Source: Candidatus Iainarchaeum sp. (lineage in GTDB: Archaea; Iainarchaeota; Iainarchaeia; Iainarchaeales; DTGL01). From it: a stretch of DNA of 13,530 nucleotides. The notes under the pieces are model-generated. The model was given only the letters and a program-made list of their open reading frames with translations. It ran no database searches and was not told the origin of the DNA. The stretch spans positions 1 through 13,530 of the forward strand of contig JAVYME010000001.1 in NCBI GenBank assembly GCA_038736825.1, in the 5' to 3' direction. Position numbers and translations under genes: made by a program. Below, piece after piece: positions 1 through 13,530 of the stretch; position 1 is the stretch's first letter; each line of letters begins with the position of its first letter.

Positions 1-1199
1 TGCATGTTGAAGGCTTTCCCCCAAAAACAATATTAAAGGCTTTGAGCACCACAGACCTTGAATTGAAGCCATTGCTGCCCCCTGACAAGGATCCATGCGA
101 AAGAATAATAGACTATTATGGTGGAAAAAAAGACGATCCAACCACTTGCCTTTACTTTGAGGGACCCCCAAACGAGGGACAAATGTACAAGGACCTGCAA
201 AGAATGTATCCCAATAAAAGCAAGGAATTCTTGATGACAGAGCTTGCAATCCAAAAAGCTCGCTTTTTCACAATGCCAGGCAACGATATAACCCAGTACA
301 ATATTGTTTTCGGCATAATGCTCACAGCAGCCGCTTGCTTTTTCACATGGTTCTATTTTAGGAACATTTACAAGCGCAGAATCCAGGAAAAAATAATGAC
401 AATAGAAACAGAATTCAAGGACTCTTTATACATAATTGCTTCAAGGCTTGGGGAAAACAAGCCCTTAGAGGAAGCAATAAGGCATGCAAAAGAATTCCTG
501 CCAAACTACATTATTTCAGACAGAATTTTTGGCAGAACCCTGGACAACATTCACTTGCTTGGCATGCCCATAGACTCAGCAGTGTTTGACCCACGCTTTG
601 GCTCGCTAGTGAACATTCCATCAAACACAATCCATGTTGGAATGCGCTTGGTGATAGATGCAACAAGGCTTGGAGTCAACATTGCAGCAAGAACACTGGT
701 GTCATTGTCACTCCAGCTTGACAATCAGGAAAAGGTTGCAAAAATGCTCAAAAACCTGGTTGTAGACTTAACCCAGATGATGAGAACAATGGCAATAATA
801 ATAACCCCCATAGTGCTAGGCATAACCACAGCGCTTTACACAGTGGTATTGCGCACTCTCTTAAGAATCGCCACTTCCGAAACAATGTCAGGAATAGAGG
901 AATCAAGCAAGGCAGCACGGGAAGCCGGAGCCTTTGGAGGCTTCACTTCAGGCAGTTTTGCAAAAGCAGAAGCAGTAATCAACATGGTAACCCCGGAATG
1001 GTTCATAATAATCATTGCAGTTTACGTGATTGAAATAGTGTTCATTGTAATCTATTTCACCACAAAAATAGAGGAAGACAACGACTTGCTCATGAAAATA
1101 TACCTTGCAAAATACCTTCCAATTGCACTAATAATGTTCGCAATATCCGTAACCCTTTCCAATCTTCTCCTCAACTCCTTTGGAGTGGTTGGAGGATGA
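1..1199 (+). CDS. Polytopic membrane platform protein of a type IV filament system (T2SS-F domain; FlaJ/TadC/PilC-like), 5'-partial
   Basis: The track ORF 42..1199 starts at a TTG. The same frame (codons from nt 3: H V E G F P P K T I L K A ...) has no stop back to the window edge, so the gene is probably truncated by the window. The translation has a soluble helical block (ETEFKDSLYIIASRLGENKPLEEAIRHAKEFLP...GMPIDSAVF...LVIDATRLGVNIAARTLVSLSLQL). Hydrophobic helices flank it (IVFGIMLTAAACFFTWFYF; AIIITPIVLGITTALYTVVL; WFIIIIAVYVIEIVFIVIYF; LPIALIMFAISVTLSNLLL). This is the layout of a T2SSF-type domain. It sits directly upstream of pilin-like genes, and its stop overlaps the next start (ATGA at 1196-1199). 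Confidence 0.6.
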   Translation, partial: HVEGFPPKTILKALSTTDLELKPLLPPDKDPCERIIDYYGGKKDDPTTCLYFEGPPNEGQMYKDLQRMYPNKSKEFLMTELAIQKARFFTMPGNDITQYNIVFGIMLTAAACFFTWFYFRNIYKRRIQEKIMTIETEFKDSLYIIASRLGENKPLEEAIRHAKEFLPNYIISDRIFGRTLDNIHLLGMPIDSAVFDPRFGSLVNIPSNTIHVGMRLVIDATRLGVNIAARTLVSLSLQLDNQEKVAKMLKNLVVDLTQMMRTMAIIITPIVLGITTALYTVVLRTLLRIATSETMSGIEESSKAAREAGAFGGFTSGSFAKAEAVINMVTPEWFIIIIAVYVIEIVFIVIYFTTKIEEDNDLLMKIYLAKYLPIALIMFAISVTLSNLLLNSFGVVGG

Positions 1200-1666
1200 A
1201 AACAAAAAAAAGCGAAAAAGGCATGTTTTGGCCCTTCAGGCTGCTCATTGCAGTAATCATTGCATTTGCAACCCTAATCATAATTCTTAGCACAATAAAC
1301 TATTTCCACCAGTACAGGCTCAAAGTCAGCTGGCAAAGGTTTTTGAACGCTTTTGAAGATGCCTACAATGCCCCAAGCACTCCAAGCCAGCCGGACAAAG
1401 GCATAAAAATAGAAAAAGACCTCGTGTTTGGCACAACCACAATTTCCTCAATAACCCTGGCACAACAATTCAACATGCCAGAGGAATGCATTACCTTTCA
1501 AGCACCAGGCTATTCGCAAATTGAAATCTTAAACTCTGGAAAAACCGCAAAAATCTCAAGGGAAATCAATTCAGCAGTATACTTTCAATGCATTGTTGAC
1601 GAAACAGACACTGCCTGCAAAACACGCTGCTATATTTCCTTCAGCCTTCCGCCGGAAATCCCCTAA
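1196..1666 (+). CDS. Small pilin-like protein with class III (type IV prepilin-like) signal peptide
   Basis: The 156-aa ORF is translationally coupled to the upstream gene (ATGA overlap, with GGAG/GGAGG just upstream). The N-terminus is MKTKKSEKG|MFWPFRLLIAVIIAFATLIIILS: a short basic leader ending in KG, then a ~22-residue hydrophobic helix. The helix and the C-terminal Cys pattern (..VYFQC..TAC..TRCYISFS) parallel the ORF at 7575 and the N-terminus of the ORF at 1704. Confidence 0.6.
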   Translation: MKTKKSEKGMFWPFRLLIAVIIAFATLIIILSTINYFHQYRLKVSWQRFLNAFEDAYNAPSTPSQPDKGIKIEKDLVFGTTTISSITLAQQFNMPEECITFQAPGYSQIEILNSGKTAKISREINSAVYFQCIVDETDTACKTRCYISFSLPPEIP

Positions 1667-1703: not shown

Positions 1704-4700
1704 ATGGAACAAAACACTTTCAGGCTGGCAGCATACGCTATAATTGCAGCAGTCCTGCTCTACATTTTCTTCTTCCACTTCGGCCCGCAATACATCTGGA
1801 AGGAAAAACCAGAACAAGTAATCCAAAACCAGCTCAAAACAGCGGAAACACAGATAGGGCATTACTCGCACCAAAAAGGAGAATTCCCAAAAGGCTTCAC
1901 AGTAATGGCAGACGGCTATGAATCCCAGTCAAGAAACGTAAACTTTGAATGCAATTACGATGTTTTCTGTTGCCCGAAAGGCGAGCCCTGCAATAAAGCA
2001 ATAGAATGGGACAACAACATGGAACGCCGCTATTTTTCCTTCAAACAACAAAAGCCAGTGGATGTATCAGCAAGATGCAGATACGAAGAAATATACATTT
2101 GCAAAGTATACCTTGGAAAAGAACCCGCACAAGTAAAAATAACAGAAACCGCACTATCAGAAAAAACCCTGGACTTGTCCCAAAAAAGAACCACCACAAT
2201 AAACTACAGCATAAAAAACACTGGCCAAAAAGAAATGGTTGCAGTGCAAGCAAAAGCCAAACTCTACAAAATCAAAAGGCTTCCATACGGGCTTGAACCG
2301 GAAAAAACACTCGTACGCGAATTCAAAGGAGAAGAATTCGCGCTCGGCATCGGACAAGAAAAAAGCCAAGAAATAAGCATAGCAATAGAGGAAAACGGCG
2401 ATTACCAGATAGAATTAACAGTGGAAGAAAAAACCGATCGCACAAACTATGAAACAAAAAAACTGGACTTGAACGCCACAGGACTGGTGGAAATCGGGGC
2501 ATGCATTCCAGGCCCAATGGAAAAAGAATATTTTTCAGAAAAAGAATGCCGTTACTATTTGCCCTGCGAAGACTGCAAAAGCATCCTGGAATGCGAAAGA
2601 AAATGGCGGGAAAAATTCTCAAACCTGCAAGGCTTTGAATTCGAATTAAAAAAATACGATGACATAAAAGGCAAAATAATAATGCAAGTGCCAGGCGAAC
2701 ACAGAAGGGAATGCACGCGCAACTGTTACCCAGAATACCAAGTGCTGCAACAACTAGCAAGATCAAGAAAACCCATAGACTTGGTTTTCGTAATAGACGC
2801 TTCAGGCTCCATGAGCGACGACATAGATGAAGTGCGCGGCGTAATAGAAAAAATACAGCAAGAAATAAGCACTGGCTGCAAAATAGGCGAAGACCAAGTG
2901 GGAGTGACACCAGAAGAATGCCTGCAAATAGGCTTGTATGTTTTTGAAGGCTCTTTCAAGGACTGCTGGGAAAACCCGCAAAACCCGTTCTTTGCAAACT
3001 GCTTGAAACAAATGCGAAGCACCCCCCTGGTCACACAATACGATTCCTATGCATATGTTGCATGCTTGAACGCTGAAGCAAACTTAGTCGACTTCTATAA
3101 AAAAAAATGCCCAAATTATTCAAGCCCACAGACACAGGCAATGTGCCAGAAAATTTTAACAGAAGTTGGAAGCGACACCCTGAAAAAAAACATTGATTCA
3201 AGGATACCGCAATCATGCAGGGAAACAACCTATTTCCAAAACCCCTTGAATGCAACCCCATCACTTAACGGCGTACAGTCAGACATAGGATATATTCCAA
3301 TAACAACAGAATTTGAAAAAATAAACGAATCCCTTGGAAGGATTATTGCCTCACAGGGCGTCGAGGCATGGAGTGACGCACTATACTTTGTAATGGCTTC
3401 ACCTCAAATGAACTGGAGACCCAACTCTGAAAAAGCAATAATCCTGATAACCGACACTGCAGACAACCCCAACGGAATCACCTATCTCACTCCAGAAGGG
3501 CCTTACACTGAAACAGAAGGCTCAGAGAAAAGCTTGCAGGAAACAGCGCTTCTCGCACAAGAGAAAAAAATAAGGGTTTTTTCGCTGGAAGGAAAAGGCT
3601 GTGATGCTTTTTCAAACGAAATCAAAACAGCACTCAATAATTACCTTTCAAGCTTTGGTTTAGAGTCAGCAGGAGGGTACCCTGAAGTCTGCCCTGGAAC
3701 AGACCTTGCAGCAATAAGCAATTGGACCAATGGCAGCCACATGCAATACAATCAAGCAAGCGATCTCCCGCAAAAAATACTGGACATTGTAAAGGACGAA
3801 GTGAGAAGAGCAAGCGAAAACCATGTCTTGAAAATCTGTGGAGAAAACGAAGCACCGGAAACCTGCAAGGAATACTGTGCACTGCCATGGGAAAGCAAGT
3901 GCCAGGACTGCTCTTGCTTTAAAGAATTTGATGGAAAAATTGAAGGTTACAGGCTGCTTGACCTAGCACTAATAATTGATGCCACTGGAAGCATGCAAAA
4001 AGAACTCCAGACAATGAAGGAAAAAATCGGAGAAATACTAGATGCCGCGCAAGCAGAATGCAAAAAAATCGGTGTAAAAAACTGCCTTAGTGTTTCCACA
4101 AGGTATGTGTTCGGCGGGCCAACCACAAAAAACCAGCCTTTTTCAAGCAACATGCAAGCAATAAAAAACAATATTGCAAGCGCCACCGCACTTGGAGGCG
4201 GAGACCTTCCAGACCCATGGGCGGGAGAAGCCCTGATTTCACTCAAAGGAATAATAAGGGAAAACAAAACAGAGCAATGGAGCCCGCACTCCAAAAAAAT
4301 AATGGTGATAATCACTGACGCTCCAAACAATCCCGACGAAATAGTCTTTGAAGACTATAGAAGAACAGTAAAAGCCACTCCAGCCACAACAGGAATAGAC
4401 AGCGTGATAACAGAATTAAGAGACACCGCAAAAAGAAACGGAATAAAAATTTTAGGACTTTACAGCGAAGACAATCCAGCCATTTCACCAAAAACACAGC
4501 TTGAATGGCTTGCAAGGGAAACCGGTGGAAAAGCAGTCAATTACACAAAAGGACAGGATTTTTCAAGCGAAATCACTTCACTGATAGTGCAAGAAATAAA
4601 AAGCGAAAGCGAAAAATCATGGTGCACTCCAGACCAGTGCAAGGTTTGCGCGGAAAGAACAGAGGATGCAGCCACAGTGCCACTTGAATGGGAATACAAG

Positions 4701-6008
4701 CTGAGCTGCACTGAAGACACAGAAAAATGCATGACTGTAATGACCTGCTATCCAGCCGAACTTTCCTTCACTGAATGCATTAAAAAATGGACTGAAACAG
4801 TTGTTGACAAAAGCACTCCATTATTGCAAGACCAGGAAAAAAAATGGCTTTACGCTGAAGGCATAAAGAAAAAAAACGGCGTGAAAACAAGCGAAGAAGA
4901 CTGGACTGAATGCGATCTGCCAAAAATAACAGAAACCTGTGGGGGCAGCACAGTGAAAAGAGGCGAATACAGGCCAGTGCAAATAGGTCCGTATGTGAGC
5001 CCAAGGGAAAACTGCACGAGCAATGAAGACTGCGAAACAATGGATTGCAGCACAAAACAATGCCCTGAAGGCCAAACTGCAAAAGGCGAATGCAGTGCCA
5101 GTGGAAAATGCGAGTGCACTTGCAGTGAAGAAATCGGAAAATTGCCTTCTACAGCCAGTGAAATTGAATGCGTTGAAAAACTTGCTGAAACCGATAACTG
5201 TTATTGTGAAACAGGCAATGAAGCACTGGAATACGCTGACAGGGTGCGAGAAGGCGGAAAGCCAGTGGACTTGCTATTGGTTGTTGACGCCACTTACAGC
5301 ATGCAACTTGAAGGAAAAGCTCTCGTGGAAGCATTCAGTGCACTAAACGAAAAAATGAAAGAACCCTGTGTTTTGGAAGACGGAAAAGCCTGCCTTGCTG
5401 TCGGCATAATAACAGTTGGAGGTTATGCAGCCCAGCGTGAAAAAAACCATTTCGTGAAAATTTCCGGTTCAGGCTTTCCCGTCCTTGAAAAAGGCTTGGG
5501 AGCAATAAGCATTTCCCATCGCTCGGAAGACATTGAAAAAATGCTTTCCTCTCTTGAAACCATTGGCTTTGTTGAAGAAGAAGAACCCTGGGCTGACGCC
5601 ATAGCATATGCTTTGAAATCGCCGGCAATGGGTTGGAGAGAAAACGCAAAAAAAGCATTACTGCTTATTGCAGGTGAACCAAATAATGCTTCAAAAACAG
5701 CGCTGGCTGAAGCAAAAAACATTATTGCCTCCAGCAATGCATCAGTTTATGCGGCTGTCAAAAACATGTCAACTGGCGGAATGTCGCCAGAAAAAGACGC
5801 ACAGGCAATAAGTGCAAAAAAAATATCCCCTTATTCCATTCAATTAGCACTAGACTATTCAAAAATCCAGTTCGATGATTCAGGCAAACCCTTTACAGAC
5901 ATACTCAAAATATTCTTGAAAGACATTGCAGAAGAACAAATATTGTTTGCAAAGAAAACCCCAAAATGCGCTCCAGAAAAATGCACTGAATGCAAAACCG
6001 CCGGATAA
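1704..6008 (+). CDS. Giant (1434 aa) cysteine-rich surface protein: pilin-like N-terminal module, CARDB-like Ig domain and three vWA/MIDAS modules (candidate modular pilin or pilus-associated adhesin)
   Basis: Uninterrupted 4.3-kb ORF. The N-terminus MEQNTFRLAAYAIIAAVLLYIFFF aligns with the hydrophobic helices of the two small pilin-like ORFs (PFRLLIAVIIAF / TFKLLIAAIVAV). The following ~110 aa share RNV.F.C and C.V.L-type motifs with them. Three vWA beta1/MIDAS signatures are present: DLVFVIDASGSM (nt 2778), DLALIIDATGSM (nt 3960) and DLLLVVDATYSM (nt 5268). Each is followed by a (P)W(A/S)(D/G) helix and a hydrophobic beta4 strand (ILITDTADN / VIITDAPNN / LLIAGEPNN). Confidence 0.75.
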   Translation: MEQNTFRLAAYAIIAAVLLYIFFFHFGPQYIWKEKPEQVIQNQLKTAETQIGHYSHQKGEFPKGFTVMADGYESQSRNVNFECNYDVFCCPKGEPCNKAIEWDNNMERRYFSFKQQKPVDVSARCRYEEIYICKVYLGKEPAQVKITETALSEKTLDLSQKRTTTINYSIKNTGQKEMVAVQAKAKLYKIKRLPYGLEPEKTLVREFKGEEFALGIGQEKSQEISIAIEENGDYQIELTVEEKTDRTNYETKKLDLNATGLVEIGACIPGPMEKEYFSEKECRYYLPCEDCKSILECERKWREKFSNLQGFEFELKKYDDIKGKIIMQVPGEHRRECTRNCYPEYQVLQQLARSRKPIDLVFVIDASGSMSDDIDEVRGVIEKIQQEISTGCKIGEDQVGVTPEECLQIGLYVFEGSFKDCWENPQNPFFANCLKQMRSTPLVTQYDSYAYVACLNAEANLVDFYKKKCPNYSSPQTQAMCQKILTEVGSDTLKKNIDSRIPQSCRETTYFQNPLNATPSLNGVQSDIGYIPITTEFEKINESLGRIIASQGVEAWSDALYFVMASPQMNWRPNSEKAIILITDTADNPNGITYLTPEGPYTETEGSEKSLQETALLAQEKKIRVFSLEGKGCDAFSNEIKTALNNYLSSFGLESAGGYPEVCPGTDLAAISNWTNGSHMQYNQASDLPQKILDIVKDEVRRASENHVLKICGENEAPETCKEYCALPWESKCQDCSCFKEFDGKIEGYRLLDLALIIDATGSMQKELQTMKEKIGEILDAAQAECKKIGVKNCLSVSTRYVFGGPTTKNQPFSSNMQAIKNNIASATALGGGDLPDPWAGEALISLKGIIRENKTEQWSPHSKKIMVIITDAPNNPDEIVFEDYRRTVKATPATTGIDSVITELRDTAKRNGIKILGLYSEDNPAISPKTQLEWLARETGGKAVNYTKGQDFSSEITSLIVQEIKSESEKSWCTPDQCKVCAERTEDAATVPLEWEYKLSCTEDTEKCMTVMTCYPAELSFTECIKKWTETVVDKSTPLLQDQEKKWLYAEGIKKKNGVKTSEEDWTECDLPKITETCGGSTVKRGEYRPVQIGPYVSPRENCTSNEDCETMDCSTKQCPEGQTAKGECSASGKCECTCSEEIGKLPSTASEIECVEKLAETDNCYCETGNEALEYADRVREGGKPVDLLLVVDATYSMQLEGKALVEAFSALNEKMKEPCVLEDGKACLAVGIITVGGYAAQREKNHFVKISGSGFPVLEKGLGAISISHRSEDIEKMLSSLETIGFVEEEEPWADAIAYALKSPAMGWRENAKKALLLIAGEPNNASKTALAEAKNIIASSNASVYAAVKNMSTGGMSPEKDAQAISAKKISPYSIQLALDYSKIQFDDSGKPFTDILKIFLKDIAEEQILFAKKTPKCAPEKCTECKTAG
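2133..2430 (+). other. CARDB-like / Ig-like beta-sandwich domain inside the giant ORF
   Basis: Segment KITETALSEKTLDLSQKRTTTINYSIKNTGQKEMVAVQAKAKLYK...EISIAIEENGDYQIELTVEE. The ..v.v.NtG....v.v.l. pattern is typical of CARDB-type domains. Recognised by eye only. Confidence 0.4.
2778..3600 (+). other. vWA module 1 (complete DxSxS MIDAS motif; contains a long insertion)
   Basis: DLVFVIDASGSMSDDIDEV ... GLYVFEGS ... VEAWSDALYFVMASP..NSEKAIILITDTADNPNG ... KKIRVFSLEG. The C-terminal boundary is approximate. Confidence 0.6.
3960..4600 (+). other. vWA module 2 (DxTxS MIDAS variant)
   Basis: DLALIIDATGSMQKELQTMKEKIGEIL ... RYVFGG ... DPWAGEALISL ... SKKIMVIITDAPNNPDE ... NGIKILGLYSED. Boundaries are approximate. 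Confidence 0.6.
5268..5940 (+). other. vWA module 3 (degenerate MIDAS: DxTxS, with the beta4 Asp position replaced)
   Basis: DLLLVVDATYSMQLEGKALVEAF ... GIITVGG ... EPWADAIAYALKSP..NAKKALLLIAGEPNN ... ASVYAAVKN. The residue equivalent to the TD of modules 1 and 2 is AG. Boundaries are approximate. Confidence 0.5.
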
Positions 6009-6029: not shown

Positions 6030-7429
6030 ATGTTGAAAAAAAACTGTTTTCTTTTGTTTTAGCCTTGCTTTTTACTGCTGTCACAGTAAATGCAATTTAC
6101 ACTGAATTTTTGCTTGCATTTTATCTACAAAACCAGACAGCATTTATAAAAACTGCAATTTTTGAAAACCAAATGGAAGAAATTGATAGGGCTTTCAGCC
6201 TTGGAACCGATCTTTCCACACTAAGAAGAAACGCTCAAAGCCCGGAATGGATTAAAGGAGAAAACGCGCTTGTCACGCGAATTAAAACCGAAATGCCTGC
6301 AACAGGAATAGGGTACTCCATTCTAAGAGACGGAATTGAATTAGACGGCGTGAGCACCACTTTACGCTTAGGTGACACCATTTCATTCAAGCCAAAAGTG
6401 GAAATTCCCTCTGATTGGACACAAGTCGGCGGAGTCATAGGCACTCCACCAATACAATTCCTAGCAGACCAAGAAAGAGACTCACTATACCTGAAACTCT
6501 TGCAAAAATTCAAGCAAAACTATCCCACTGGGCACCACTTCAACCATGTCTACAACTATATAGCCTTGGGAGCACAAGAAAAGTTTTCAACAAACCGCAC
6601 AACCTTCAAAACCACAGAAGACAATTACCTTGCAAGCAACGGATTTCCAGCATACATTACCCCAATAGCGGATGGAAGAAAAGCCGGAATCCAGATATTT
6701 TGCTCAAACAATTTGCGAAGCGAAACCCTTGAATGCATTGGCAAAGGAGAAACACTGGAATGCACAGTAAAAAAAAGCGGTTTGGCAGAAATAAGCTTGG
6801 AAAAAAACTGCTTTGTGCATGTTGACAAAATAATTTATGGAAACGAGGCAATAGACGCTGGATGGGTTTCACAGTTAGGCAGTCTTTCAGACAACACAAC
6901 ATACTATCCGCTCATGGTTTGGGGCAGCTATAAACTGGAATTGCAAGTAATTCCAAAAGGAAAAATTCCACCAGTAGCGGAATTAGAATGCACGGTTTTA
7001 AGCAAACCGCAACCACAAAACCCTTTGGGAGAAATAGAATGCAATGCATCACAATCCTATGACCCTGATGGAAAAATAGAAAGATTTGAATGGGATAAAG
7101 ACAAAACCGCTCCACCATTGCAAGTAAAATACAGAAGAAAGACTGCTTCAGAAGCTGCCGTAACACTGCGAGTCTATGACAATGACGGACTCTATGGAGA
7201 AAAAACCAAAATAGTTTATTGGGAAGGCGAACCAAAAAAACTGGAATTGTCAGCAGAATACAATGCTCCTACAAAAAAAGCAATGATTTCACTCAAAAAC
7301 TGCCCGCAAGGCACCACCCAAGCATTCATAGACATAGACTTATTGCAAGAAACAGATGCAAAAAAAACCCTTTCAGTTCTAGAAAAGCAACAATTCCATG
7401 CGAGCAAACCACTGCAGTTGGACCCATAA
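6030..7429 (+). CDS. Secreted PKD-domain protein; the reading frame is interrupted at an A8 tract right after the probable ATG start
   Basis: The track ORF is 6065..7429 with a TTG start. GGAGGG at 6016-6021 lies 8 nt before ATG 6030. From that ATG the frame gives MLKKNCFLLF then a stop at 6060-6062. One extra A in the A8 run (6036-6043) would give MLKKKLFSFVLALLFTAVTVNA|IYTEF, a textbook Sec signal peptide fused to the long ORF. A PKD-like signature lies downstream (see the separate feature). Confidence 0.6.
6036..6043 (+). repeat. A8 homopolymer at the frame break between ATG 6030 and the 6065..7429 ORF
   Basis: Counted directly: ...atgttg aaaaaaaa ctgtttt... A +1 (or -2) change in length restores a single ORF with a signal peptide. 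Confidence 0.8.
6980..7225 (+). other. PKD-like domain
   Basis: ELECTVLSKPQPQNPLGEIECNASQSYDPDGKIERFEWDKDK...AAVTLRVYDNDGLYGEKTKIVYW. This matches the S.DPDG.I..Y.WD ... v.D..G pattern characteristic of PKD domains. Confidence 0.6.
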
Positions 7430-7574: not shown

Positions 7575-8183
7575 ATGAATTTTTTAGGGGTGAAGAAAGT
7601 GTTTTTTTTGGGACAAAAAGGACAAGCCTTTTCTACATTCAAATTGTTGATTGCTGCAATTGTGGCAGTAGTGATACTGGTTATTTTGCTTTCAATTTTG
7701 GGCATAATAAATTTTTCGCCCAGAAACCAGCCGATTGTGGGTGCAACTGATGCTTTAAAGGAAGCATACCAGACAAAGACTCTTCTTTACACTAGCCGAG
7801 AGCCAGTGACTTTCACAAGGGATAACAGTATTATTACCAGCATGGCAATAGTGGAAAGAGCAAATGTTGGGTTGGCTGAAGACCAAGTGTGCTTGAGTTT
7901 GGGAGAATTGACAGATGCTGCCTCATTAGCTGGGTTTAAAGGAAATGATGAAGGCGCTTGGAAAAAAATAGAATACACTGCTGGCGGTCAAAGGAACGTA
8001 AAGTTTGCAGTTCTATGCATGGAGGGAAAGAGCATTCCAGACCAGGTTGGAAGCGACCAGGTTGGAAGCGGCAACACCTATCAAGATATAGACGAGGCTT
8101 GGGTTGAAAACTGCCCTTGCGTGAAGGATAAAACCATTAACAAAGACATTTGCTGCGTTATAATGCTAAAGTATGCAAGGTAA
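7575..8183 (+). CDS. Pilin-like protein with class III signal peptide (KGQ|AFS type)
   Basis: 202-aa ORF. The N-terminus is MNFLGVKKVFFLGQKG|QAFSTFKLLIAAIVAVVILVILLSILGIINF. The KGQ-x-S context followed by a ~25-residue hydrophobic helix resembles archaeal type IV pilin/Epd-type prepilins. The C-terminal half is Cys-containing (VCLSLG, AVLCMEG, NCPCVKD, DICCVIMLKY). A GTG at 7590 (giving MKKVFFLGQKG|Q) is an alternative start. Confidence 0.65.
   Translation: MNFLGVKKVFFLGQKGQAFSTFKLLIAAIVAVVILVILLSILGIINFSPRNQPIVGATDALKEAYQTKTLLYTSREPVTFTRDNSIITSMAIVERANVGLAEDQVCLSLGELTDAASLAGFKGNDEGAWKKIEYTAGGQRNVKFAVLCMEGKSIPDQVGSDQVGSGNTYQDIDEAWVENCPCVKDKTINKDICCVIMLKYAR
8040..8069 (+). repeat. Perfect 15-bp tandem duplication (gaccaggttggaagc x2), in frame inside the pilin-like gene (DQVGS-DQVGS)
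   Basis: Unit 1 is 8040-8054 and unit 2 is 8055-8069. They are identical when read directly from the sequence. Confidence 0.9.
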
Positions 8184-8206: not shown

Positions 8207-8845
8207 ATGGTTTCAAAAAAACCCGCGGGCTTTTTTCAAAAAGCCCGTTCTTTTTTTTATCGCGGCCTTGAAGGAATTGCAGTTGAAGAGTTCAGGGAGA
8301 AGGCTGGCGAAGAGGCAAAAAAATCTGCAAAATTTTTGTTTTTAGCCTTTTTCTTTATTTTTGCCCTTTTTGTGCTTTCAAGCCTTGTGCCATTGGAGTG
8401 GAGTGAAAGGCTTGTGGCAAACACTGTGCTTTACGGCTTGAACTCGCAAGGCTTGAAGGGCAGAATTGAAGCCTCTCCCACTGGAGATGCTGTCCTGATA
8501 TTATTGGAAAACGGTCCAAGAATAGAAATATCGTATCTTTGCACTGGGCTTTTGGAAACAATATTGCTTGCTGGAGTTATTTTAGCCTCTGCAGGCATTC
8601 CAATATATAAAAGAATAATTGGTGTGATTGTTGGAGGGATTGCTGCAATGGTTTTAAACCTTGCAAGGATTTTCATCACTATTTTTTTCATTTACAATTC
8701 TGGCATTGAAACAGTGGAATTCATTCACGATTTTTTTTTCCGTGCCTTCCTGTTTGTTTCGGTTTTCTGCATTTATGCTTTTTGGTTTAAGTGGGCGACA
8801 GGCGGTTTCAGTGAAAGGCAGTCTGTAAAAAAAAAAACAGGTTGA
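8207..8845 (+). CDS. Exosortase/archaeosortase-family integral membrane protein (short form, ~212 aa)
   Basis: The track gives a TTG at 8150, which overlaps the previous gene. The first in-frame ATG after that gene's stop is 8207 (MVSKKPAGFF...). The protein is multi-pass hydrophobic. It has the family-like signature order Cys in EISYLCTGLLETILLAG (codon 8540-8542), Arg in AMVLNLARIFITIFF (8666-8668), then IHDFFFRAF (His 8726-8728, Arg 8741-8743). This resembles the CSG ... N..RI ... H/R motifs of exosortase/archaeosortase enzymes. Recognised by eye only. Confidence 0.65.
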   Translation: MVSKKPAGFFQKARSFFYRGLEGIAVEEFREKAGEEAKKSAKFLFLAFFFIFALFVLSSLVPLEWSERLVANTVLYGLNSQGLKGRIEASPTGDAVLILLENGPRIEISYLCTGLLETILLAGVILASAGIPIYKRIIGVIVGGIAAMVLNLARIFITIFFIYNSGIETVEFIHDFFFRAFLFVSVFCIYAFWFKWATGGFSERQSVKKKTG

Positions 8846-8859
8846 AGCCGGGATTAATG

Positions 8860-8896
8860 AAAAAGTATAATAATAACTATTGAGCATTAATTAACT
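8860..8896 (+). promoter_or_regulatory. AT-rich candidate promoter region for the untracked giant ORF
   Basis: Two TATA-like strings are present: agtataataata (about 8864-8875) and ttaattaa (8887-8894). A weak SD-like aaggga (8914-8919) precedes ATG 8927. I cannot tell which element, if either, is used. Confidence 0.25.
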
Positions 8897-8926: not shown

Positions 8927-11900
8927 ATGGGTGTTTCTGACTCTTTGAGCGGTATTTACATTAAGGCAGAGGATGCCTGGTACAAGCTGGTGGACTCGCT
9001 TTCAGAAAAAGGCATTCCATTATATGCTTACACTGATTTTTTGGACAAGCGCGGCATTCCAAGTTTTCCTTTCACAATTGCCCTCATATTCATTTTGTTG
9101 GCGCTTGCAATTTTTTTCCTTGCAGGAAACAATGTAGAAGTGAACCTCAGACTGCGCTTTTCCGACGAAGAAGGAAATCCAGTAAACGATGTTTCAGTGT
9201 CTGTTTCATATGATAGTGGCACAGCAATAGGGAGCCAGAAAATGGCAAGCAATTCCACTTGGACTATTAAAAACGTGCCAATGAACTCTAAAATTGTTGT
9301 TTCTCCGAGAAAAGAGGGCTTTGAACCTCCAAAAGAGCAAACCATTGTTGCTGACGGGCGAAAAGAACACCCTCTTTCTTTTTCCTTTAAAAAACCGCGC
9401 ACTTACATTACCGGCTTACTGCAAGTGAAATCTTCCACTGGCACAACAATAAAGAACGCTGAATGCCTTGTTTTGACTGATGAAAAACGCCAAATAAAAG
9501 GCTTGCAGGTTGAAGACAAGATTTCTTTTGCCAACGTGCCAGCCGGCATTCCGGTTGTTTTGACTTGCAGTGCAAGTGGGTATGAAAGCATAGATGAAGA
9601 GGAAGTCATATTCAAAAAAGACACTGTTTACTTTGTTTCAATGAATCCCAAAACCGCAGGTCTTGAAGGAAAAGAGCGCGTGAACGTGCTTTTCAGGTTG
9701 CTTGACAAGGAATCAAAAGAACCAGTGGGAATTGCCAAAATCAGGATTTTCAAAGAAGGCGATGAAAAGCCATTGTTTGAGGATGAAACAGATGAAACAG
9801 GAGAGTATGTTGCAGAGATTTTAGCTGGAACCATAATAAGGGCTTCAATTGAAGCCCAAGGCTATATTTCAAAAAACACTGATCCTGTCACTGTTGTCAA
9901 AGAAATGCCTCCAATAATTGTATTAATGGAATTGGGTGGCAGGACTGTTTCTGTCACAGTTGTTTCAAAAACCGGACTGCCAGTGAATGACGTGATTGTT
10001 TCATTGTACACTGAGGACGGCGTTCTAATTGAATCCAAAAAAACCACTAGCGGGCCTTTTGGCGGAAACGCTGTTTTTGCAAACTTGGATCCAAACAAAA
10101 CCTATTACCTTACTGCATACAAGCAGGGTTTTTTGCCAAAGCGCGTCAAATTCTCTCCATCAGAAGAACCTGACTTGAAAATAGAGCTTGAAAACGCAAG
10201 CCCGAGCAATTCTGCAAGGCTTACTCTCACGGTTTTGGATTCAGAGGGCTTGCCTGCAAAAAATGCAAAAATAAGGTTTTATGCATTAGAGGGTGACAAA
10301 AAGGTTCCGCTTGGCATTCCACAAATGGAAACAGACATGCAGGGAAAAGTCAGCGTTATAGTGCCAGAAGGCAAACTGTTAGTGGAGGCAGAAACAGACA
10401 CTGAAATCCAGAGAAAAGAGTTTGACATCAAGGCGGGCAATGATGTCACTGACACGATTTCAATGGAGCGCAAACCCAACCTTGTGGAATTAAAGTTTTT
10501 GGATGACGAGGGAAACCCGATAAAGGGCGACATCATAATTCGCTCTAAAAGCGGGGAAATTCTTTTCAAGGGGCGTCCCTCCAAGGACGGAACAGTGGTT
10601 TTTGACGCAAAGGGCAATGAAACCTTTGACGTGGAAGTCACAACTGATAACGGCAAAAAGTTCACTGAAGAGGTTAGGATTGGGGGAGAAAAAAAAGCCA
10701 CTGTCACAATTACAACAACTGAAGCAAAGCTTTTCCCAAAAATAGAGTTTGCTGGAGTGTTTGACGGAAAAGGGCAAAAAGTGGAAGGCATTTCAAGAGG
10801 AGAATTTTACTGGCTCAAGTTTGTTGTTTCCTGGCAGAGCAATGAACAGGCAGGCGTTCACATAAGGCTTGGCGAAGACGAAAAACCCTTTGCTGAATCC
10901 ATGGAATTCGGTGTTTACGGGTTTGATGCTGTTGCCAGAAGGTTTTTTTACGGGAAAAGCTATCAGCCTCCCTTGGGCACAAGGGAAGACAAAGCCAATT
11001 CTGGAACCGCGGGAGAAAAAAACAAGTTTGTTGAATTGTATTTTGACCAGCCAGCGGACCAGCAAGTGATAAAGGTTAAAGTGAAAGCCAACGAAATTGG
11101 CACTGCAACAAAAATGCCTGTTTATTTCAGGGCTTGGGTGAAAGCAGGCACTCAATATTACAGGGATCCCGAAGACAGCGAGCTTGAAAAGGCATTGAGC
11201 ACAAACACCAAGGCATCCCTTTACGCTGCCACCAAAAAAGAAGAAGTCAAAATCTTTTCCTCAAAGCCAAAGTGCGCTGAAGGAATATGCATTGAAGCCT
11301 CCTTCTTTGATGATGAAAGCAGAGAGCAAAAAAGCCAGGATTTCAGGGCAGTGATTGGAAGAAGGTATGCAATAGAGGCAAGGGTTAGCGCTGACGCTGT
11401 AAAAACCGTGGAATTGACTGCAGAAACAACAGAACAGGAAAAAATAAGGTTTTCAGAATTCAGGGAGGGCACAAGCACTCTCTGGCCTGATTCAGGCTAT
11501 GACAAGCAAAGCGTTTCAATAAGCGGATTGCGGGTTTCAGAGTCAACCACTGCAAGAGCAAGAGCCTATTTTGAGGCAAAAGCCCAAGGCACTGGATATA
11601 TTAAAATAACAGCAAGAGAAGGCGAAAAACAGGCAGAGCAAAAGTTTTATTTCAAGATAACAGGCATAAGGGAAATGGATTTAGTGCTTGCAGGCAATGG
11701 TTCCATAAAACCGGGTGAAAAGCTCTCACTAACCTTAAAAGAAAAAGAAACCGGTTATGCATTGACAGACGCACAATTCACTGTTCTTTCCGGTGAAAGG
11801 CCTGTTCTTTTCTTTAAGGGAACAGGTGAGGAAGGCAATGGCCTTGACGGCAAATATCTTTTGGGAACCGAAACACTTGGCCCTGGCGCTTACAAGTTGA

Positions 11901-13530
11901 TTGCTTCAAAGCGCGATTACCAGGACAAGCAGGCACAGTTCACTGTATCAATTGAAAACATTTTGACACTGGAAGGCGAGCCAGAGTTCTTCCTTGACAA
12001 AGCCAAAACACAGGCAACCTTTCCACTTACAATAAAAAACAATGTGGCAACAGCAAAAGTGGAATCCCTTTCATACGAATTTTATCCTCAAAAAGGCTGG
12101 CTTGAAAACTTTTCGCTTGAAGTGCCGCTTCCAAGCGGTGGAATAAGAGGCGGAGGCTCAGTCTTTCCAGTGCTAAAAGCAGCATACATTGGAAGCGAGC
12201 CAAATGCAAGCGTTCACGCTGAAGGCGAACTCTTAATCAGGGGAGTTTTAGACACTGGCTTGGTTGCAGAGGCAAAAACCCAAGTGAAGGCAAACTACAA
12301 CAAGCCAGTGCCAAGCGAATGCCTTGAAATAAAGCCTTCAACAGTTGAAGCCTCCATTCTGGGAACAGCGAATTCAACCACAACAGTTGAAATTACAATA
12401 GAATACAAAGCCTCGGAAAAATGCAGGGACGCTTTATTGCTTAAAACCAGTGCAGAGCCAAAGCGAAAAACCGAACAACCACTGAAAATAACAGCGCCGG
12501 ACATAAAAATTTCCCCAGGGGAATCAAAAACAGTGGCAATCACTATAACAAATCCAATTGAAAGGCAAACAGAAGGAATGCAGTCAGCGGATTACACTTT
12601 AACAATTGAATCCGAAAAAGTAACCAAGAGCGCTTTGCTGAAAGTCTACTTTGTAAACCCGTATTTTTCGCTTCAAACAAACGACAACATTCCCATTTTT
12701 GCAACCTTGGGCGAAGACGGCAAAGTAAGAGGGCTTGCCCCATTATACATAAGCAATGTTGGCAGGAAAACAATTGAAAACATAAAAGCAAAAGAAAGCG
12801 GACTCATCACAAAAAAACATCCCTTCAATGTAAGAATCAGGCCTTCAGAGATTGCACTTGCGCCGCAAGCGGAAGCAATTGCAACCCTGAAAAGCGGGGA
12901 ACAAATAACACCTCCATGGATTATAGAAGTAACATCCGATGCAGCAACCTATGAAAGCGAATACGAAATATACATTGACATTAGCGGCACAATTGACGGC
13001 AAAAACTATAATCCAATGAAAACCATAAAAGCAATAGTAAAAGTCTCCATTTCGCAATGCTTAAAACTGATTTCAGCCGCAGGCGGCTTGGAATTCTCAA
13101 GCCCGGACAGCTCGCAAGGAGTAATATCAAAAAAAGTAACATTGAAAAACCAGTGCGGGGAAGGACTCAGAAACATAGAAATCCTGCCAGCAAGATTTGG
13201 ACAAAACGAGATATCATTATACAGAGCCAATGCACTCAACAGCCTTGGCATTGGCGAAGAAGCAGAATTCCAGGTAAGGCTTACAAAAAGAAGCGATTAC
13301 TTCAACCAGTCAAACCCTGAAACAATAATTGCAAGAGGCTTGCTTGAAAACAGCCAGGAATTCATAGAATCAAACCCGTTATCCATAATAATAATGATAG
13401 GACAGGTTCCGGAAACAGCGCCAGGCCCATCATTTGACGAAGTACAAATACCTGTCTGCGAATCCGACACCAAAGAAATCAAAGCCGTAAGGTTCCCTCA
13501 AACTGCAAGAGAAGCAGAATGCGAAAGAGC
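8927..13530 (+). CDS. Giant surface protein, 3'-partial (>1534 aa): N-terminal cytoplasmic segment, one signal-anchor helix, six tandem Ig-like repeats and further Ig/CARDB-like domains. Not present in the supplied ORF track.
   Basis: I translated the frame starting at ATG 8927 codon by codon to 13528 and found no stop. An in-frame stop lies upstream at 8888-8890, and a TTG at 8906 is an alternative start. The N-terminus is MGVSDSLSGIYIKAEDAWYKLVDSLSEKGIPLYAYTDFLDKRGIPSFPFTIALIFILLALAIFFLAG (helix about 9065-9127). The rest is beta-rich and shows RNY-type codon periodicity. All track ORFs in 9028-13482 are on the opposite strand, are 60-170 aa long and are rich in Phe, Ser, Leu and Cys, as expected for antisense shadows. 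Confidence 0.85.
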   Translation, partial: MGVSDSLSGIYIKAEDAWYKLVDSLSEKGIPLYAYTDFLDKRGIPSFPFTIALIFILLALAIFFLAGNNVEVNLRLRFSDEEGNPVNDVSVSVSYDSGTAIGSQKMASNSTWTIKNVPMNSKIVVSPRKEGFEPPKEQTIVADGRKEHPLSFSFKKPRTYITGLLQVKSSTGTTIKNAECLVLTDEKRQIKGLQVEDKISFANVPAGIPVVLTCSASGYESIDEEEVIFKKDTVYFVSMNPKTAGLEGKERVNVLFRLLDKESKEPVGIAKIRIFKEGDEKPLFEDETDETGEYVAEILAGTIIRASIEAQGYISKNTDPVTVVKEMPPIIVLMELGGRTVSVTVVSKTGLPVNDVIVSLYTEDGVLIESKKTTSGPFGGNAVFANLDPNKTYYLTAYKQGFLPKRVKFSPSEEPDLKIELENASPSNSARLTLTVLDSEGLPAKNAKIRFYALEGDKKVPLGIPQMETDMQGKVSVIVPEGKLLVEAETDTEIQRKEFDIKAGNDVTDTISMERKPNLVELKFLDDEGNPIKGDIIIRSKSGEILFKGRPSKDGTVVFDAKGNETFDVEVTTDNGKKFTEEVRIGGEKKATVTITTTEAKLFPKIEFAGVFDGKGQKVEGISRGEFYWLKFVVSWQSNEQAGVHIRLGEDEKPFAESMEFGVYGFDAVARRFFYGKSYQPPLGTREDKANSGTAGEKNKFVELYFDQPADQQVIKVKVKANEIGTATKMPVYFRAWVKAGTQYYRDPEDSELEKALSTNTKASLYAATKKEEVKIFSSKPKCAEGICIEASFFDDESREQKSQDFRAVIGRRYAIEARVSADAVKTVELTAETTEQEKIRFSEFREGTSTLWPDSGYDKQSVSISGLRVSESTTARARAYFEAKAQGTGYIKITAREGEKQAEQKFYFKITGIREMDLVLAGNGSIKPGEKLSLTLKEKETGYALTDAQFTVLSGERPVLFFKGTGEEGNGLDGKYLLGTETLGPGAYKLIASKRDYQDKQAQFTVSIENILTLEGEPEFFLDKAKTQATFPLTIKNNVATAKVESLSYEFYPQKGWLENFSLEVPLPSGGIRGGGSVFPVLKAAYIGSEPNASVHAEGELLIRGVLDTGLVAEAKTQVKANYNKPVPSECLEIKPSTVEASILGTANSTTTVEITIEYKASEKCRDALLLKTSAEPKRKTEQPLKITAPDIKISPGESKTVAITITNPIERQTEGMQSADYTLTIESEKVTKSALLKVYFVNPYFSLQTNDNIPIFATLGEDGKVRGLAPLYISNVGRKTIENIKAKESGLITKKHPFNVRIRPSEIALAPQAEAIATLKSGEQITPPWIIEVTSDAATYESEYEIYIDISGTIDGKNYNPMKTIKAIVKVSISQCLKLISAAGGLEFSSPDSSQGVISKKVTLKNQCGEGLRNIEILPARFGQNEISLYRANALNSLGIGEEAEFQVRLTKRSDYFNQSNPETIIARGLLENSQEFIESNPLSIIIMIGQVPETAPGPSFDEVQIPVCESDTKEIKAVRFPQTAREAECER
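9134..10720 (+). repeat. Six divergent tandem ~85-90-aa Ig-like repeats (CarboxypepD_reg / Cna-B-like pattern) at the protein level
   Basis: Units start near 9134, 9404, 9674, 9941, 10211 and 10478. Each has the pattern hydrophobic strand + D/S-x-x-G-x-P-(V/I)-x-x-A/V-x-(V/I) ... G ... hydrophobic strands ...G(Y/F)... Examples: LRFSDEEGNPVNDVSVSV, RLLDKESKEPVGIAKIRIF, VVSKTGLPVNDVIVSLY, TVLDSEGLPAKNAKIRFY, KFLDDEGNPIKGDIIIRS. The DNA-level identity between units is low. Confidence 0.6.

Follow-up and report, generated by a model that had tools for sequence, protein, structure and literature searches.

We analysed a stretch of 13,530 nucleotides at the start of contig JAVYME010000001.1 (GenBank assembly GCA_038736825.1; hereafter the window), whose source is an Iainarchaeota (Diapherotrites, DPANN) archaeon, concentrating on a gene at positions 8927 to 13530 of the plus strand that encodes the N-terminal part of a giant, predicted surface protein (hereafter the giant). 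A sequence-only reading of the window had pointed out that this 4.6-kb open reading frame (ORF) was absent from the supplied ORF track, and had put this down to the want of a stop codon within the window. That explanation is correct: the ORF is missing because the ORF lister drops ORFs that run off a sequence end, and translation of 8927-13530 gives 1534 sense codons and zero stops, the re-check for an in-frame stop between 8927 and 13528 having found none. The discovery is largely one of an annotation artefact, and the sequence had already been deposited as a hypothetical protein: a GenBank entry from a Candidatus Diapherotrites archaeon metagenome-assembled genome (MAG), here P0001 (“hypothetical protein QXK06_00035, partial”, 1542 aa), is 100% identical to the giant product. 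The parts of the gene that lie within the window, all on the plus strand, are as follows.

8927 to 13530, plus strand: 5′ part of the giant gene, aa 1-1534 of ~2722 (absence of stops, identity with P0001, continuation in the deposited protein P0016, ratio of non-synonymous to synonymous substitution rates (dN/dS))
8927 to 9064, plus strand: conserved N-terminal module, aa 1-46, putatively cytoplasmic (invariant residues, family profile)
9065 to 9127, plus strand: predicted signal-anchor transmembrane (TM) helix, aa 47-67 (FPFTIALIFILLALAIFFLAG), with a Kyte-Doolittle 19-residue mean of 2.86, present in all homologues
9128 to 10726, plus strand: six tandem prealbumin-like (CarboxypepD_reg-like) repeats of ~90 aa, aa 68-600 (PF13620, hhalign)
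10727 to 11668, plus strand: beta-rich family-specific region, aa 601-914, with many invariant columns (AlphaFold2 (AF2) model all-beta, predicted local distance difference test (pLDDT) mostly 75-89)
11669 to 11953, plus strand: seventh prealbumin-like repeat, aa 915-1009 (hhalign against repeat R4, 94.9%)
11954 to 13396, plus strand: four immunoglobulin (Ig)-like sandwiches in the order A-B-A′-B′, aa 1010-1490 (hhalign A with A′ 60%, B with B′ 63%; AF2 all-beta, pLDDT ~80-90)
13397 to 13530, plus strand: start of a distal Cys-containing region, aa 1491-1534 (Cys1511, Cys1532), collinear with orthologues through ...EAECE(R/Q)A-YC-DAVQFS...

The open frame is a gene under purifying selection

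At the base composition of this region about one stop per 16 codons is expected, giving a probability of 3e-43 that 1534 codons would contain none, and the remaining five frames of 8927-13530 hold 35-97 stops each, with a longest open run of 175 codons. Purines occupy 70% of first codon positions in the giant frame. In comparisons with orthologues at 49-65% amino acid identity, third codon positions differ most, and dN/dS is 0.09-0.14, with dS near saturation. The giant frame is under purifying selection and is a real plus-strand gene. That the long frame is not a gene, and that the short minus-strand ORFs opposite it are real or the region is non-coding, has next to no probability: presence in the ORF list is all that speaks for the minus-strand ORFs, whereas the stop-free run and the low dN/dS in the plus-strand frame, the conservation of the protein at 26-65% identity across many metagenomes, and the confident AF2 folds of its product all speak against this reading. 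Antisense ORFs are similarly found opposite the orthologue in locus L002, and those opposite the giant gene are shadows.

The deposited protein P0001 starts at TTG 8906, 7 codons 5′ of ATG 8927, and ends at the last base of the window. We regard ATG 8927 as the better start because orthologues begin at the position with which it coincides. An AT-rich, TATA-like stretch lies 5′ of the giant start, at ~8860-8876. The gene is the largest in the window, as the sequence-only reading had said of the locus, and the seventh of seven window genes, matching locus tag 00035. No DNA tandem repeat was found within it, and no Rfam family was matched in the window.

Full length of the giant and the break at the window edge

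A profile of the C-terminal parts of orthologues found P0016 (“QXK06_00040, partial”, 1185 aa), the following entry by locus tag in that MAG. At the junction the window product stops at ...EAECER(A) and P0016 picks up with DAVQFSAF..., where orthologues read EAECEQA-YC-DAVQFSEF; exactly 2 residues are missing between the two. Joined across this gap they give 2722 aa that run collinear, at 59% identity, with the L002 orthologue (2719 aa, from an Iainarchaeum MAG), and other complete relatives of the giant are 2449, 2723, 2820 and 2740 aa long. Because of this collinear join, we take the giant to be ~2722 aa in full, with aa 1-1534, or 56% of the gene, in the window, and the break at 13530 is on this evidence an assembly or scaffold gap and no biological end. 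Exact-sequence look-ups of three window proteins, P0001 and P0016 in the contig collection returned none on record.

A second MAG (NT067) also breaks within its orthologue: P0002 (L003 9992-14044) stops at aa 1350 with a divergent tail, and P0017, a partial protein from this second MAG, overlaps the P0002 break point and extends further. Assemblies break again and again within giant genes of this family, for which strain heterogeneity may be a cause, and the pieces are deposited as separate partial proteins; the largest genes are also lost from view in ORF tracks that leave out ORFs reaching a sequence end.

A conserved N-terminal module defines a large family

The N-terminal soluble segment and single hydrophobic helix described in the sequence-only reading are both present, as aa 1-46 and aa 47-67, the latter being the sole strongly hydrophobic helix of the window product. 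The soluble module has the motif Y..-E-D-x-Y/W-Y...D...K-G-I-P...D-F-L-D-K-x-G-I-P-S-F-P, in which Y11, E15, Y19, D23, K28 and P45 are invariant in orthologues and paralogues, and no Pfam model matches it. Lys and Arg residues sit on the N-terminal side of the helix, and the available features suggest an uncleaved signal anchor with N-in topology.

An exhaustive profile search of 1.84 billion cluster representatives with this N-module recovered 1148 proteins at E<=1e-3 and 846 clusters at E<=1e-10, with the match beginning at residue 1 in nearly all proteins listed; a word-indexed search with the N-terminal module gave only 8 short fragments. Among the 144 new representatives listed, 95 have a length of 1000 aa or more and 51 of 2000 aa or more, the longest reaching 4511 aa, and the short representatives may be fragments. 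The 95 long representatives listed keep E-[DE]-x-[YWF]-[YF] in 88 cases and [ILVF]-P-[SAP]-[FL] before the helix in 83, and none of them (0/95) has a C-terminal TM tail. The residue preceding [ILVF]P[SAP][FL] is V in 38, G in 21, I in 10 and N in 5 of these 83. A reading of KRG/IPSF in the giant as a class III signal was rejected because of this family-wide variation at −1, and the giant lacks the short charged leader, ending in [KR]-[GA] and conserved across the family, that would be expected of an archaeal type IV pilin.

The window product has the module, the TM helix and the prealbumin-like repeats by which the family is defined, and scores 115 bits with the hidden Markov model (HMM) from alignment A2, an alignment that includes the window's own N-terminus. 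The four representatives with an organism name come from Iainarchaeota/Diapherotrites or Micrarchaeota, and members are named in GenBank as “hypothetical” or “carboxypeptidase regulatory-like domain-containing protein”. To judge from their sequences, these N-motif giants are a large family so far without a name.

Domain structure of the beta-rich region

A long beta-rich multi-module region follows the helix, as had been proposed, and carries paired cysteines; the individual domain calls made for it fared less evenly. The claim of six tandem CarboxypepD_reg-like repeats stands for the whole window protein, which matches CarboxypepD_reg (PF13620) at 71.4 bits (E 7.9e-20) against a gathering cut-off of 32.3 bits. 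Scanned singly, however, four of the six repeats are sub-threshold (R1 E 0.008, R3 0.0014, R4 4e-7, R5 0.04), the best of them, R4, reaching 30.8 bits and so falling below the PF13620 cut-off, and R2 and R6 have no Pfam match. Comparison of orthologue alignments with hhalign connects R1-R4 and R6 at 82-96%, with R5 weak, and adds the seventh copy at aa 915-1009, the equivalent of which in three distant orthologues matches CarboxypepD_reg at E 8e-7 to 3e-5.

Two other assignments fell away. The segment called Big_2-like (AKAQGTGYIKITAREGEKQAEQKFYFKI) lies in aa 601-914, the most conserved stretch, which also contains the Cys783/Cys788 pair; a Pfam scan of aa 601-914 was without a match, and Big_2 was matched neither there at E<=1 nor in five orthologues at E<=0.05. 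The segments called CARDB-like correspond to aa 1010-1490, where weak fn3_5, FixG_C, PapD_N and WxLIP matches were the only ones found. As no CARDB (PF07705) match occurs in the giant or in five orthologues, we describe them instead as generic Ig-like sandwiches; the sole weak CARDB match in the window (E 0.046) is in a neighbouring protein with VWA-family matches.

Sandwiches B and B′ each have a conserved Cys pair (1132/1166 and 1378/1410, respectively). The window product contains ten cysteines in all, forming five closely spaced pairs, with Cys 783/788 and 1132/1166 invariant across the aligned homologues. The AF2 model of aa 590-1534 is all-beta with a mean pLDDT of 76, and a Foldseek search with it returned only generic multi-Ig chains (hydin-like axoneme proteins, alpha-2-macroglobulins and titin) at a TM score of ~0.2, matches that were not used to assign function. 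Together, the TM helix, the five Cys pairs, the all-beta AF2 model, the multi-Ig Foldseek matches and the prealbumin-like repeats argue for a surface location of the giant. The sequence-only reading's basic description of a giant surface protein thus holds, and its further wording, “adhesin or S-layer-like”, goes no further than suggestion.

The C-terminal part of the protein

The P0016 part of the giant opens with ~500 aa of mixed alpha/beta character containing 8 Cys (aa 1-520 of P0016), followed by moderately hydrophobic helices (1.4-1.5 vs 2.9 for the N-terminal helix, TM1), a ~350-aa helical module without Cys (P0016 aa 580-925, with a confident helical bundle at 660-890), a further hydrophobic helix and, at the end (P0016 aa 960-1185), a conserved domain of ~220 aa that contains 8 Cys and finishes in W..F. 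The 8/0/8 Cys pattern of P0016 suggests a course from outside through the membrane to the inside, and back through the membrane to the outside, in which the ~350-aa Cys-free helical module would probably be cytoplasmic. The earlier description of the protein as N-terminally anchored is therefore right as to the N-terminal helix but incomplete, since ~1190 aa more follow the window, with moderately hydrophobic helices, the Cys-free helical module and the terminal domain. A lysozyme-like identity for the end domain, in which LDEALLMAVL..EP looks faintly like a lytic transglycosylase, was considered and rejected on finding no PDB-sequence profile match and no Foldseek match at E<=1e-3.

A conserved cluster of pilus-type and exosortase-like genes

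The giant gene is the last of a series of genes on the plus strand of the window, of which the others are the following.

1 to 1199, plus strand: 3′ half of a TadC/FlaJ-like pilus platform gene, open in frame from base 3 and running off the 5′ end
1196 to 1666, plus strand: pilin-like protein (..KG/MFWPFRLLIAVII..), recognised from its sequence and with orthologues in L001, L007 and L020
1704 to 6008, plus strand: 1434-aa Cys-rich protein with Pfam VWA-family matches in at least 2 regions and an N-terminal hydrophobic helix
6065 to 7429, plus strand: 454-aa protein with a weak PKD-like match
7575 to 8183, plus strand: pilin-like protein with a class III-type signal (..GQKGQ/AFSTFKLLIAAIVA..) and orthologues at the same position in L001-L004 and L020
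8207 to 8845, plus strand: exosortase/archaeosortase-family membrane protein (TIGR04178, PF09721), 81 nt 5′ of the giant gene

The product of 1-1199 shares 73% identity with the C-terminal half of a 770-aa protein of L001 (5905-8214), a platform protein with a weak T2SSF match encoded after a T2SSE ATPase. Because 1-1199 is the 3′ half of a platform gene, the window starts inside a pilus-assembly operon. At the other end of the series, the exosortase-like product of 8207-8845 belongs to the family described by TIGR04178 (42.8 bits, cut-off 23) and reaches no named subfamily, the best being XrtX at 52 bits against a cut-off of 170. Its residues C112, R154 and H174 are invariant in 7 homologues. 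The sequence-only reading had placed the giant directly downstream of an archaeosortase-family gene, and this adjacency, across 81 nt, is conserved in relatives.

The same gene order is found in L001, L002, L003, L004, L007 and L020, running on one strand from a T2SSE ATPase through a TadC-like platform, class-III-signal pilin-like proteins, the exosortase-family gene and the giant to a pilin-like protein of 540-590 aa and further giant(s). In L001, L002, L004, L007 and L020 the giant is followed by the 540-590-aa pilin-like protein and then by 1-2 more giants with the same N-terminal module. A metagenome scan seeded with the exosortase-like protein gave 27 loci, in 15 of which the enzyme gene is followed downstream, on its own strand, by that of an N-module giant. 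Among the 12 loci without one, 7 have <=700 nt of downstream sequence (in two of the 7 the next gene after that of the enzyme encodes a small membrane protein, an arrangement that in L010 precedes the giant), L023 has only 142 nt of it, and four (L016, L018, L021 and L033) are real exceptions. The loci examined span 31-55% G+C.

A C-terminal tripartite signal (motif, TM helix and basic cluster) is absent from the giant, P0016 and 4 complete orthologues being hydrophilic at the C-terminus, and because it has no C-terminal sorting signal the giant is not a canonical archaeosortase substrate. A search of the loci for a classical sorting-signal protein gave one candidate in one locus only, which is not conserved: L003 4764-6326, whose 520-aa product has a Sec signal peptide and, after a linker rich in Pro, Thr and Gln, a C-terminal TM helix and KKKKK.

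Several further observations concern the other members of the cluster. The protein between the first and second giants (535-594 aa; L001 17350-19020, L002 10616-12232, L004 10389-11996, L007 16734-18518) has the N-terminus ..FNLFTALV.. where it is complete (L001, L005, L007) and a Cys-rich C-terminus, and is a candidate large minor pilin. In one sub-lineage a ~190-aa membrane protein (MEIMKD..VK.PI..L) is encoded 3′ of the exosortase-like gene (L006 75-677, L010 7560-8132, L014 1276-1854, L025 684-1265), and also 5′ of the giant where the contig reaches that far. The gene at 1704-6008 sits between both pilin-like genes, has a homologue in L003 and none at that position in L001 or L020; it therefore seems to be a variable cargo gene, whose product may be a VWA adhesin. 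Two ORFs visibly similar to the 454-aa protein of 6065-7429, with Sec-type signal peptides, occur in L003 (3082-4692 and 6116-7891), and the called TTG start of the window gene is doubtful. Within the pilin-like gene at 7575-8183, a perfect 15-nt tandem duplication (GACCAGGTTGGAAGC x2.1; 8040-8070, plus strand) keeps the frame, giving DQVGS-DQVGS, and seems to be recent. At 8225-8248 on the plus strand, 42 nt past the stop of this gene and in the 5′ end of the exosortase-like gene, a 10-bp G+C-rich hairpin with a T-run could act as an attenuator of read-through from a strongly expressed pilin gene, such sites being no commoner than in shuffled sequence. Finally, L007 (JAFCBY010000012.1), deposited as Candidatus Falkowbacteria, a bacterium of the candidate phyla radiation (CPR), contains the whole cluster, with archaeal-like pilin-like genes and a 2740-aa orthologue; it is probably a mis-binned DPANN contig, with lateral transfer as the alternative.

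Proposed role and competing explanations

An attached life on other cells is assumed for DPANN archaea, and the molecules of contact are known for very few lineages. We consider it fairly probable that the giant has an adhesive or structural role within a surface apparatus of the DPANN cell. It would be a membrane-tethered component projecting outwards from the cell, with an ectodomain of ~2000 aa in which seven prealbumin-like and at least 6 other Ig-like sandwiches with conserved Cys pairs would be followed by Cys-containing alpha/beta domains. It would be made and used with the pilus-like machinery, most plausibly for attachment to a host cell or surface, and the shared cytoplasmic N-terminal module would be the likely handle by which giants are recruited to that machinery.

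Several observations weigh against this proposal. The giant itself yielded no domain specific to adhesins (lectin, VWA, laminin-G), and its C-terminal half, without a Pfam, PDB-sequence or Foldseek (E<=1e-3) match, offers no pointer to function. The moderate hydrophobicity of the C-terminal segments relative to TM1, together with their low pLDDT, leaves the multi-pass topology uncertain. N-glycosylation sequons are not enriched (9 found vs 8.2 expected), the putative link between the giant and the pilus machinery is one of gene order, and hosts for Iainarchaeota are not established.

Three other explanations compete with that of a surface apparatus, and all are less well supported. The giants could form a regular outer coat on membrane helices, as S-layer-type envelope proteins for which the pilus genes are mere neighbours. 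The giant is large, acidic (isoelectric point 5.3), beta-rich and membrane-anchored, with disulfide-type Cys pairs, all of which would suit such a coat; several archaeal type IV pilus loci hold S-layer-like proteins, according to one survey (PMC4858521), and DPANN S-layers had not been analysed as of a 2018 review (PMC6098224). Yet we think a coat unlikely, as no S-layer family is matched in Pfam or NCBIfam, 2-3 divergent giants of 2500-2800 aa in tandem would be unusual for lattice subunits, and neither the conserved cytoplasmic N-terminal module with the Cys-free helical module nor the interleaving of giants with pilin-like genes is what a coat would lead one to expect. Somewhat less probable still, the giant could be a pilus-tip adhesin or an outsized pilin-like subunit: a prepilin peptidase would cut its long class III signal after K-R-G, and the helix would then be extracted by the ATPase and platform for mounting on a filament. 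The topology is prepilin-like, with a charged N-terminus, K(R/K)G and a hydrophobic helix, the Gly is kept in this giant's orthologues, and ATPase, platform and pilin genes are adjacent; against this, the position counted above (V 38, G 21, I 10, N 5 of 83) is no conserved Gly/Ala cleavage site across the family, the leader is a conserved 43-aa module and not a short basic peptide, and the C-terminal hydrophobic helices, if they span the membrane, would hold the protein in it.

The adjacent enzyme raises the third explanation, that the giant is its substrate, cleaved and lipid-attached as PGF-CTERM proteins are by ArtA. The enzyme still has all three invariant residues (Cys, Arg and His), its gene and the giants are tightly linked, and a tripartite signal located elsewhere than at the C-terminus can also be processed by ArtA (work cited in PMC6098224). 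We nonetheless hold this to be very improbable: the real C-terminus (..VWRKFDICSDGS) and those of the orthologues are hydrophilic, none of the 95 long members listed has a C-terminal TM tail, the internal hydrophobic region does not have the form of motif, TM helix and basic cluster, and the IPSFP motif would lie on the cytoplasmic side while the enzyme's Cys is predicted from sequence to lie at the outer face.

Returning to the surface-apparatus proposal, a more far-reaching version of it can be entertained, to which we would give only a small chance: the N-module (EDxYY...IPSFP plus helix) would be an unrecognised sorting or assembly signal of >800 clusters, serving a machine made of the pilus-type ATPase and platform and a non-canonical exosortase, and forming a lineage-specific host-contact organelle. 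If this were true, the exosortase family would act here on proteins without any C-terminal signal. In more general terms, the giant family is a concrete candidate for a DPANN surface or attachment apparatus and points to a possible unconventional role for exosortase-family enzymes, its traits being a specific N-terminal module, predicted to be cytoplasmic, linkage to pilus-assembly genes, and linkage to a sortase-like enzyme, the usual C-terminal signal for which is missing. What is new here is the recovery of the full length, the corrected domain calls, the exclusion of a canonical sortase signal, and the large N-module family in a conserved pilus/exosortase cluster.

Comparison with known systems

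Like the system of archaeosortase A and PGF-CTERM proteins (Haft 2012; Abdul Halim 2013-2018, reviewed in PMC6098224), the present cluster places an enzyme with conserved Cys, Arg and His beside large surface proteins. It differs in that the giant and its family are without the C-terminal tripartite signal, and in that the enzyme falls below every named subfamily cut-off (XrtX, 52 of 170 bits). We found no paper linking DPANN, exosortase and pili, and none on XrtX. With surface proteins of the CarboxypepD_reg/prealbumin-like kind (PF13620, PF17802) the giant shares seven repeats of that fold, which make up ~25% of its full length; the N-terminal module, aa 601-914, the A/B modules and the C-terminal 1190 aa, in contrast, are without a family.

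Surveys of archaeal type IV pilus loci (Makarova et al. 2016, PMC4858521; 2019, PMC6393860) read large anchored or signal-peptide proteins as adhesins, minor pilins or S-layer-like, and mention DPANN pilus loci with “specific surface proteins”. The cluster described here resembles these loci in that a large surface protein is encoded with a FlaI/TadC-type ATPase, a platform and diverse pilins. It differs in its shared N-terminal cytoplasmic module, of which the available parts of the two surveys make no mention, and, from methanococcal pilus loci, in that their DUF2341/PilY-type domain was not found in the giant; a text search of PMC4858521 gave no mention of sortase.

The SPEARE proteins of Nanohaloarchaeota (Hamm et al. 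2019, PMC6642349) are 3,000-8,500 aa long and consist mostly of extracytoplasmic adhesion-type domains, with a TM segment and a cytoplasmic part; they were proposed to mediate host contact, and FlaI/FlaJ pilus-type genes occur in the same organisms. No sequence similarity to them was detected, and no serine-protease, laminin-G, toxin or restriction-endonuclease domain, type III restriction endonucleases included, was found in the window protein, P0016 or P0003. Whereas the present family has its own N-terminal module and lies inside a pilus/exosortase cluster, it shares with the SPEARE proteins the plan of a giant DPANN protein with TM and cytoplasmic portions, the bulk of which would be extracellular.

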